From NCBI GenBank assembly GCA_001785575.1, contig MFUC01000009.1, positions 1 through 36,657 of the forward strand: a DNA stretch of 36,657 bases, read 5' to 3'. A program made the translations under genes and the position numbers. Each line of letters starts with the position of its first letter. Within the stretch, counting starts at the first letter, position 1. This DNA is from Candidatus Nomurabacteria bacterium RIFCSPHIGHO2_02_FULL_38_15. GTDB taxonomy: Bacteria > Patescibacteriota > Minisyncoccia > Phycocordibacterales > UBA9973. The notes beneath the pieces were generated by a model. It searched no databases. It saw only the letters and a program-made list of their open reading frames with translations, and was not told the origin of the DNA. Below, in pieces: positions 27,056 through 28,872 of the stretch.

Positions 27056-28689
27056 TTCAAGTAGAGTTTGATCCTAGCTCAGGATGAACGCTGGCGGCGT
27101 GGATAAGGCATGCAAGTCGAACGGATAGTACCGTGAAAGTATTTAAGAAATCTGAAGTAGCAATACAGAGGGTCGATTAAGTGCCGGATCGGATTTGCTA
27201 TTAGTGGCAAACGAGGTAGTAATACATAGGAATTTCCCCCTAAGTCGTGAACAACTCACCGAAAGGTGTGCTAATACACGATGGTCTCTCTGGAGTAAAG
27301 ATTTATCGCTTAGGGAAAAGCCTGTGGGATATCAGCTTGTTGGTAGTGTAATGGACTACCAAGGCTATGACGTCTAGGGGAGCTGAGAGGCTGACCCCCA
27401 CCGATGGGACTGAGACACGGCCCATACACCTACGGGTGGCTGCAGTCAAGAACCTTCCACAATGGACGAAAGTCTGATGGAGCGACGCCGCGTGATCGAT
27501 GAAGCTTTTCGAAGTGTAAAGGTCTTTTATGAGGGAAGAAGTTTATTGACTGTACCTCATGAATAAGGGGCTCCTAACTCTGTGCCAGCAGGAGCGGTAA
27601 TACAGAGGCCCCGAGCGTTATCCGGAATCATTGGGCGTAAAGGGTGCGTAGGTGGCTATATTAGTCTTTCGTTAAATCCATGGGCCTAACCTGTGGTCTG
27701 CGAAGGAAACGGTATAGCTTGAGAGCGAGAGAGGTGAATGGAACTCATAGTGTAGGGGTGAAATCCGTTGATATTATGGGGAACACCAAAAGCGAAGGCA
27801 ATTCACTGGCTCGTTTCTGACACTGATGCACGAAAGCGTGGGTAGCGAATGGGATTAGATACCCCAGTAGTCCACGCCCTAAACGATGCACTCTAGCTAT
27901 TCGGAGTATCGACCCTCTGAGTGGCGTAGCTAACGCGTTAAGAGTGCCGCCTGGGAAGTACGGCCGCAAGGCTAAAACTCAAAGGAATAGACGGGGACTT
28001 GCACAAGCAGTGGATTATGCGGTTTAATTCGATGATAAACGAAGAACCTCACCCAGGTTTGAAACTTAACTGTAATCCCGCCGAAAGGCGGGACCCCGCA
28101 AGGCAGTTAAGCAGGTGATGCATGGCCGTCGTCAGCTCGTGGTTTGAATTGTTCCCTTAAGTGGGGTAACGAGCGCAACCCTCGTTGTGTGTTAAATATG
28201 TCACACAAGACTGCTCAGAACTAAGCGCACAAGTGCGCAGGTGCTAGTAATTAGTTTCTAGTGTCTAGGTAATTTCCTAGAACCTAGCAACTAGAATCTA
28301 GAACCTGTTTGCTTGCGAATTTAGTTCTGAGAGGAAGGAGAGGATGACGCCAGGTCAGCATGTCCCTTTGACATCTGGGGCTACACGCATAATACAATCG
28401 CTATTACAACGGGTCGCGACGGGGTAACCCTGAGCCAATCCTTTAAAAATAGCGCCAGTTCGGATTGAGGGCTGCAACTCGCCCTCATGAAGCCGGAATT
28501 GCTAGTAATCGCGGGTCAGATATACCGCGGTGAATACGTTCTCAAGTCTTGTACTCACCGCCCGTCAAGTCAAGGGAGCCGGGAGTGCCCGAAGTCTGTG
28601 CATAAGCATGGCCTAAGGTAAGCTCGGTGACAGGGACTAAGTCGTAACAAGGCACGGCTAGCGGAAGCTGGTCTTGGAATAATTCAATT
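27056..28689 (+). rRNA. rrs: 16S rRNA gene (3' end uncertain), with helix-40 insertion
   Basis: agagtttgatcctagctcag at 27063. Conserved blocks through gtcgtaacaagg (28641-28652) and helix 45 with GGAA loop (28663-28666). Confidence 0.93.
28223..28322 (+). other. 100-nt insertion in the loop of 16S helix 40 (intervening sequence or expansion segment)
   Basis: Conserved stem ctcagaact (28214-28222) / agttctgag (28323-31) replaces E. coli CAGUGAUAAACUG. The insert holds the hairpin gcgcac-aa-gtgcgc and a CTAG-rich long hairpin. Confidence 0.8.
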
Positions 28690-28872
28690 TGAGTCGTTCT
28701 CTACTATTTTTTAATAAATAGTAACAGAATTTATTGAGTCGATATTGTACATCTCGATCGAGTGTATAATTGTCTATGAATGTCATGACACTAAACATTT
28801 TGGAGCCGGGGGAAGACACCTGGTCCAGGCGGGACAAAAGCAAGCAAGTATGTTTCATTTTTAATACAAAAA

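Follow-up and report, generated by a model that had tools for sequence, protein, structure and literature searches.

The 16S ribosomal RNA (rRNA) gene on the stretch of DNA analyzed here (contig MFUC01000009.1, 36,657 nucleotides (nt), hereafter the window) ends without the CCUCC core of the anti-Shine-Dalgarno (anti-SD) sequence. We consider it likely that this reflects a true loss of the anti-SD throughout the host's lineage, together with translation initiation that does not depend on Shine-Dalgarno (SD) motifs. Anti-SD loss is already known for a subgroup of Parcubacteria, a part of the Candidate Phyla Radiation (CPR): Tsurumaki et al. 2022 (RNA 28:1041; PMC9297842) give the motif as detected in 48% of Parcubacteria and describe an overlap between the subgroup that lacks the anti-SD and the group that lacks ribosomal protein uL1. 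The original prediction, made from the letters of the window, had implied that the loss was novel; since the trait is published, the observation is correct but not new, and the window is one more example. Our additions are modest, namely a hairpin at the junction of the 16S and its trailer that bears compensatory changes, and evidence for SD use having been lost before the anti-SD itself.

An Rfam scan of the window returned a 16S gene that matches RF00177 from end to end (model positions 1-1533, window positions 27056-28689) at 1351 bits against a gathering score of 50. In the Rfam alignment of the 3' end, GUCGUAACAAGG lies at 28641-28652 and helix 45 comes next (28653-28676; GGAA loop 28663-28666), in agreement with the earlier placement of both elements. 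The consensus tail GGAUcACCUCCUUu is aligned to GGAAUAAUUCAAUU, whose last base is 28689; the usual bacterial sequence at this place is GGAUCACCUCCUUA. G28677 corresponds to E. coli G1530, and AUUCA at 28682-28686 occupies the CCUCC site (1535-1539). Only 6 of the 13 positions of the tail GAAUAAUUCAAUU are marked as consensus matches, which sets it apart from the canonical GAUCACCUCCUUA. The features of the 3' end are as follows.

27056..28689, plus strand: 16S rRNA gene, 1634 nt, full length by RF00177, with two lineage-specific insertions
28653..28676, plus strand: helix 45, with the GGAA loop at 28663-28666 and a C28655:U28674 mismatch (Rfam alignment, fold)
28677..28689, plus strand: 3' tail GAAUAAUUCAAUU in place of GAUCACCUCCUUA (E. 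coli 1530-1542), without an anti-SD (Rfam alignment)
28682..28694, plus strand: mini-hairpin AUUCA-AUU-UGAGU (fold; covariation across CPR)

None of CCTCC, CTCC, CCTC or TCCT occurs in the 195 nt from 28678 to 28872, which bears out the earlier statement that neither cctcc nor ctcc lies between helix 45 and the pre-16S processing stem. CACCT occurs there once, at 28817; the CACCU-like string singled out in the original prediction is present, but it belongs to CACCUGGUCC, which is not an anti-SD and sits inside a local hairpin (28799-28829). Two independent assemblies of the same species from other samples (L001 and L002) carry the identical tail, so that it is not an assembly artefact. Position 28674 is G in both of these assemblies, where it pairs with C in helix 45, and T in the window, where the pair becomes a C:U mismatch; the T could stem from strain variation or from an error in the consensus.

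We scanned one genome per GTDB species for the 16S signature TGTACTCACCGCCCGTCA (U at E. coli position 1396) and read the tail type from the sequence following GTCGTAACAAGG in each of the 120 loci found, which come from many CPR classes and from Campylobacterales. CCTCC was missing from the 52 loci (species) with the host-type helix 45 (CACGGNTAGCGGAAGCTGNTCGTGG), whose labels include Paceibacterota and Nomura-, Taylor-, Zambryski-, Adler-, Ryan- and Nealsonbacteria, and GGATCACCTCCTT was kept in Magasanik-, Uhr-, Falkow-, Moran- and Berkelbacteria as well as in Campylobacterales. A metagenome scan anchored on the helix-45 type alone added 120 further sequences. Of about 105 distinct metagenomic tails with the host helix-45 type, only 2 carried CCTCC, and with contig ends taken as a proxy for the mature 3' end, 0/120 metagenome contigs ended within 100 nt of helix 45. 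Across GTDB genomes and metagenomes, about 160 distinct Paceibacteria-type 16S ends carry a non-CCUCC tail at the same position, which supports the claim that this 16S truly lacks an anti-SD; the conserved form of the tail in a large group is GGA(A/U)UAAUUCAAUUUGAA.

This distribution agrees with the subgroup of Tsurumaki et al. The window belongs there by lineage and by the absence of CCTCCT from its 16S 3' end, the lineages found to lack the motif here (Nomura-, Taylor-, Zambryski-, Adler- and Nealsonbacteria) are likewise the same, and retention in Magasanik-, Uhr- and Falkowbacteria matches the "Parcubacteria 1" distinction (PMC9297842). That account, in its available portions, covers the absence of the motif and the overlap with uL1 loss; the replacement sequence, the hairpin, SD usage and leaderless signals are not described in them. 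The genes for L10 and L7/L12 (5408-6331; region 4460-6331) are preceded in the window by a BtpA-family gene rather than by L11-L1 and are not followed by rpoB, and no Pfam match to L1 or L11 was found among the 30 window open reading frames (ORFs) scanned (36.7 kb of the genome). This context fits the reported overlap with uL1 loss and is suggestive only, as one window proves nothing.

The position vacated by CCUCC takes part in a small hairpin with the start of the trailer. In the window, UUCA (28683-28686) pairs with UGAG (28690-28693) across the loop AUU, with A28682-U28694 as a fifth pair; the 5' arm corresponds to E. coli 1535-1539, the loop to 1540-1542, and the 3' arm consists of the first trailer bases. 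The hairpin of the host species can be extended to G28677-C28699, a form with no apparent conservation in the relatives inspected by eye, and we limit our claim to the inner 4-5 base pairs (bp). An equivalent hairpin, equally distant from helix 45, is formed in CPR that keep the anti-SD (GGAUCAC-CUCC-UUUCUA-GGAG). The arms vary in a compensatory manner among anti-SD-less species (UUCA/UGAA, CUCA/UGAG, UCCA/UGGA, GUCA/UGAC, UUCC/GGAA, UUAA/UUAA and UCCU/AGGA), and lineages with variant tails covary as well (UUCC/GGAA, GCCU/AGGC and CUCU/AGAG). We counted 4-bp hairpins in the distinct tails of three groups, with shuffled 3' parts for comparison.

Anti-SD-plus CPR: 29/29 tails (shuffled mean 3.6)
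Anti-SD-less Paceibacteria: 111/160 tails (shuffled mean 29, maximum 42)
Campylobacterales: 0/16 tails (shuffled mean 1.1)

The hairpin is thus absent from the Campylobacterales control, unlike in anti-SD-plus CPR. The MAFFT alignment of the tails was ungapped and put the 3' arms out of register at differing loop lengths; we used a fixed-register script with controls and a covariance-model alignment instead. In the latter, which comprised 95 CPR 16S ends, all four tail pairs vary on both sides and 92.5% of the cells are paired. The covariation score was reached by 0/500 partner shuffles, and shifting the partner by 1-3 columns collapsed the signal. The covarying hairpin argues for a third constraint at 1536-1539 that is independent of the identity of CCUCC. 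Most likely, judged from these comparisons, it is a processing element of the pre-16S 3' end, and we incline slightly towards a role confined to the precursor. The mature rRNA would then end in or near the hairpin loop (at about U28689), leaving the 13-nt tail GAAUAAUUCAAUU. A precursor element is in keeping with the report that 16S maturation in Flavobacterium johnsoniae is slowed when the anti-SD is ablated, an effect independent of translation (PMC13000453). A search of the accessible literature found no description of an anti-SD/trailer hairpin in pre-16S rRNA or of its function.

In other CPR classes, the anti-SD core is altered and not lost, reading AUCUCC, ACUUCC, ACCUCU or UUCUCC. These loci are L009, L022, L026, L036, L076, L077 and L096 (Peribacteria/Peregrinibacteria), L044, L098, L108 and L109 (Gracilibacteria-like), L062 (Azambacteria) and L033 (Ryanbacteria). 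In several of them the trailer arm changes to match the altered core (e.g. UUCC/GGAA), most clearly in the Peribacteria/Peregrinibacteria set, L062 and L033. Several representative metagenome-assembled genomes in GTDB labelled "uncultured Candidatus Saccharibacteria" have a Paceibacteria-type helix 45 and anti-SD-less tails, and CPR-type 16S ends also occur on contigs labelled Gammaproteobacteria, Bdellovibrionales, Udaeobacter or Spiroplasmataceae. Such oddly labelled loci (L011, L015-L017, L035, L046, L049, L064, L071, L079 and L114) are probably mislabelled or contaminated bins.

To compare SD use between groups, ORFs of at least 100 amino acids were called by one crude rule (longest ORF) in all fetched loci. 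In the window, GGAG, GAGG or AGGA is found at -18..-5 of 1/27 non-overlapping ORFs, and a control position also gives 1/27. The scarcity of SD cores that the original prediction had linked to anti-SD loss is real; it is not specific to that loss, since CPR that keep CCUCC show no SD peak either. In the Campylobacterales control the three 4-mers form a sharp peak at -12..-7 (6 hits among 21 genes; no hit at other upstream positions). Their profile is flat in anti-SD-less Paceibacteria (240 genes) and flat also in CPR that keep CCUCC (154 genes). The lack of SD enrichment even in anti-SD-keeping CPR suggests that SD use was probably lost first and the anti-SD afterwards. U occupies -1 in 49-61% of the genes of both CPR groups and A is enriched before the start, which indicates that the starts are mostly well placed.

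A second signal upstream of the starts separates the two CPR groups. Extended -10 boxes (TGNTANNNT) lie 6-9 nt before the start in 26/240 genes of the anti-SD-minus group, where about 3.6 are expected from background, as compared with 3/154 in anti-SD-plus CPR (Fisher p = 6e-4). Six of the window genes have such a box, with starts at 2961, 6427, 14154, 24681, 26057 and 23720 (the last on the minus strand, RNase R). This pile-up points to leaderless mRNAs, which we would predict to be frequent in the anti-SD-less group. A literature search found no report of leaderless translation in Parcubacteria.

Several points weigh against the explanation we favor. About one third of the called starts are GTG or TTG and probably misplaced, which dilutes an SD peak; under the identical procedure the control still showed its peak, though in only 21 genes. 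The alignment used for covariation is fitted to the structure, and relatedness among its sequences keeps the counts from being independent. Another point is the short length and A/U richness of the hairpin (the extended host form folds at -4.6 kcal/mol), and about 31% of the anti-SD-less tails do not form a clean 4-bp hairpin. Finally, the position of the rRNA end relative to the hairpin comes from homology with organisms whose 16S ends at ...CCUCCUUUCU.

We propose the following course of events, in which a single stand-alone 16S gene would have lost its anti-SD, as in a large part of the Paceibacterota class. Two constraints on GAUCACCUCC are known, SD pairing and binding of Era, an assembly GTPase with a KH domain that, according to a review, has been lost from most CPR (PMC10582724). 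Both would already have been gone or weak in CPR, and decay of the anti-SD would have become possible because SD motifs are unused even where CCUCC is kept and because Era is absent from most of these genomes. One constraint would have remained, namely the pairing of 1536-1539, as a 5' hairpin arm, with the beginning of the trailer, and the CUCC/GGAG hairpin of the anti-SD keepers would have given way to UUCA/UGAG here through compensatory substitutions. The hairpin may mark or assist maturation of the pre-16S 3' end, and the 13-nt tail would not be paired with mRNA. Translation would start without SD pairing, with many first genes apparently leaderless and preceded by an extended -10 box at a distance of 6-9 nt from the ATG, and the remaining genes would present A/U-rich start contexts with U at -1.

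Alternatively, the hairpin could be retained in the mature 16S, whose 3' end would then lie beyond the 3' arm, as a permanent small helix on the 30S platform. Where CPR keep CCUCC, such a helix would cover the anti-SD in cis; in Paceibacteria it would fill the site of the SD/anti-SD duplex. Its conservation and covariation across CPR agree with such a role, masking in cis would explain why SD motifs are unused where CCUCC is kept, and conservation in the AAUUCAAUUUGAA group extends across the 3' arm, in many cases with one additional A, and stops there. Tsurumaki et al. also note an unusual conservation of helix 26, a contact of the SD helix, in Parcubacteria (PMC9297842). If true, the hairpin would be an RNA-only counterpart of the protein pocket of Bacteroidia, and in Paceibacteria a built-in stand-in for the SD/anti-SD helix after the identity of the anti-SD had decayed. 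We nevertheless consider a permanent helix unlikely, as a 4-bp A/U hairpin is barely stable alone. Firmicutes and Actinobacteria, which are strong SD users, have a CCUCCUUUCUAAGGA(G) junction in which the first trailer bases are complementary to the anti-SD, with the same hairpin geometry as anti-SD-plus CPR, and their mature 16S ends inside the loop. Given this arrangement in SD-using phyla, a role limited to the precursor is the simpler reading.

Three further explanations fare much worse. The tail might be an alternative anti-SD that pairs with an A/U-rich motif upstream of starts, as it is conserved over many species and the upstream regions are A/U-rich. We rejected this very improbable candidate: k-mers complementary to GGAATAATTCAATTTGAA are not enriched and if anything depleted at -22..-1 of the 161 genes of loci with this tail (6-mers in 5 genes, versus 13 at -60..-39 and 17-26 for same-strand, reversed or complement controls), and half of the tail is engaged in the hairpin. 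The absence of upstream enrichment argues that the tail is not a replacement anti-SD.

We also give very little credence to a CCUCC tail made unconventionally, either by removal of a terminal intervening sequence, as the original prediction had offered, or from another 16S copy outside the window. Insertions are indeed found in CPR rRNA genes (two in this 16S and several in the 23S, one with a LAGLIDADG ORF), and the CACCU string at 28817 lies in the trailer. Against this, the trailer holds no CTCC up to the processing stem, CACCUGGUCC is no anti-SD and is held in its local hairpin, and the non-anti-SD tail is itself conserved and covarying. A 3'-end intron was rejected because no downstream exon with CCUCC is present in 28678-28872, and CCTCC is missing from the 300 nt that follow the tail in 45/50 relatives, close to the rate expected by chance. 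CPR genomes generally carry one rRNA set, which counts against a second 16S copy. The last explanation, that the palindrome at the 16S end acts as DNA, for instance as the site of a dimeric protein, could draw on the dyad symmetry of TTCAATTGAA, TCCAATTGGA and CTCAAATTGAG and on the fact that DNA palindromes covary like RNA stems, but it is hardly credible given stem G:U pairs (UUCA/UGAG here, UCCA/UGGG, UUAA/UUGA) that suit RNA and break DNA dyad symmetry, loop lengths of 2-8 nt, and the location of the element exactly at a known RNA processing site.

Returning to true loss with SD-independent initiation, the host resembles Bacteroidia (Flavobacterium johnsoniae; PMC13000453) in having genes without SD motifs and in initiation via A-rich, unstructured start regions. 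In Bacteroidia, CCUCC is kept, sequestered by bS21, bS18 and bS6 and still used for rpsU (PMC13000453), whereas it is gone from the host. The Bacteroidia arrangement, in which CCUCC is retained and genes lack SD motifs, does not apply to the host, in which CCUCC is absent though its genes lack SD; the closer parallel is found in CPR that keep CCUCC without an SD peak. Mitochondria and tiny-genome symbionts share reduced genomes, simplified ribosomes and a small-subunit rRNA tail without CCUCC (Lim 2012, Amin 2018 and Nikolaeva 2021, all cited in PMC9297842; PMC10582724 for mammalian mitochondria). Paceibacterota differ from them in that the loss spans a whole species-rich, free-standing class and the tail keeps a covarying hairpin.

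The anti-SD is among the most conserved short sequences of bacteria, and a class that dispenses with it is a natural experiment on the function of the 16S tail. The comparison suggests a testable order, in which SD use is already gone from CPR with a retained CCUCC, Era has reportedly disappeared from most CPR, and the sequence decays only afterwards, in a manner that preserves the hairpin. For 1536-1539, a structural role at the 3' maturation site would thereby be separated from mRNA pairing and Era binding. In practical terms, gene finders that rely on SD motifs will misplace starts in anti-SD-less genomes, and 16S 3'-end primers (1525R-type) will miss these genomes.

Beyond the 3' end itself, the 16S transcription unit has a recognizable promoter, processing stem and terminator.

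26850..26877, plus strand: promoter-like site TTGACA-16 nt-TATAAT just upstream of the leader, 12/12 consensus matches
26929..26956, plus strand: leader side of the long RNase III-type stem between pre-16S leader and trailer, pairing with 28873-28899 (cofold)
26996..27027, plus strand: leader side of the inward extension of this leader/trailer helix, pairing with 28829-28860 (cofold), with a copy of CAAGTATGTTTC at 27004-27015
28690..28872, plus strand: trailer between tail and processing stem, with several local hairpins including 28799-28829, which holds GACACCUGGUCC (folds; no CTCC)
28829..28860, plus strand: trailer strand of the inner leader/trailer helix, with the second copy of CAAGTATGTTTC at 28845-28856 (cofold)
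28873..28899, plus strand: trailer strand of the long processing stem (cofold)
28944..28989, plus strand: terminator-like hairpin (fold -20.6 kcal/mol, z = -4.2) with a 13-bp outer stem and AUUUUU after it

The processing stem that the original prediction had recognized from its 3' strand at 28873-28899 is real, but it is longer than described and continues inwards through the pairing of 26996-27027 with 28829-28860. The modelled hairpin at 28944-28989 is likely the end of the 16S transcription unit. A simple terminator scanner missed it, apparently owing to its interrupted stem and a loop above the scanner's limit of 3-8 nt. CAAGTATGTTTC is an exact 12-nt direct repeat with one copy in the leader and one in the trailer and none elsewhere in the window; a boxA-like role was dropped, as the repeat was not found upstream of the 23S gene. 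Many CPR trailers, anti-SD-plus and anti-SD-minus alike, contain GUCGA(U), often as GAGUCGAU or GUGUCGA, 20-60 nt past the 16S end; motifs of this type lie at 28738-28744 and 28691-28696 in the window.

The same scan placed a 23S gene at 8386-12726 (4341 nt) and a 5S gene at 12838-12946, both on the plus strand like the 16S, which lies 14 kb beyond the 5S and is thus unlinked to the 23S; it returned 0 tRNA genes in the window. The unlinked rRNA genes, the rRNA insertions, the LAGLIDADG ORF in the 23S, the G+C content (38.6% for the window) and the gene content are together typical CPR features. The 90%-identity cluster of the window's RNase R has a member named Candidatus Paceibacterota, the closest 16S genes among the fetched species genomes are from Paceibacterota (e.g. 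Zambryski- and Taylorbacteria, 80-84% identity), and an identical TrmD protein is encoded on contigs from the Rifle aquifer and other metagenomes. By these sequence relationships, the host is a member of Paceibacterota/Parcubacteria within the CPR, from Rifle aquifer groundwater.

The two 16S insertions comprise 67 nt near the 5' end (about 27133-27199) and about 110 nt in the 3' major domain (about 28215-28330), the latter with many CTAG-containing units (ctagtg, ctaggt, cctaga, cctagc, actaga, tctaga). The 23S gene exceeds the model length by about 1.4 kb and contains the ORF for a LAGLIDADG homing endonuclease at 10606-11106, which is presumably intronic; no group I intron family scored above the Rfam gathering threshold. 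In the 530 loop region of the 16S (27585-27600 and 27562-27570), the universally conserved GCCAGCAGCCGCGG is replaced by GCCAGCAGGAGCGG and its pseudoknot partner CGGCUAAC by CUCCUAAC, and the 505-507/524-526 pairs appear compensated; 515F-type primers would mismatch this region. A1396 is changed to U (GUACUCACCGCCCGUC), as is common in many CPR and in Campylobacterales. A promoter-plus-start segment, tatgttataatttagtcatATGACATGGGCGGGGA, is present in two copies about 720 nt apart (about 13410-13445 and 14130-14165), on either side of a HicA toxin gene (13772-14005) and a possible HicB-like ORF.

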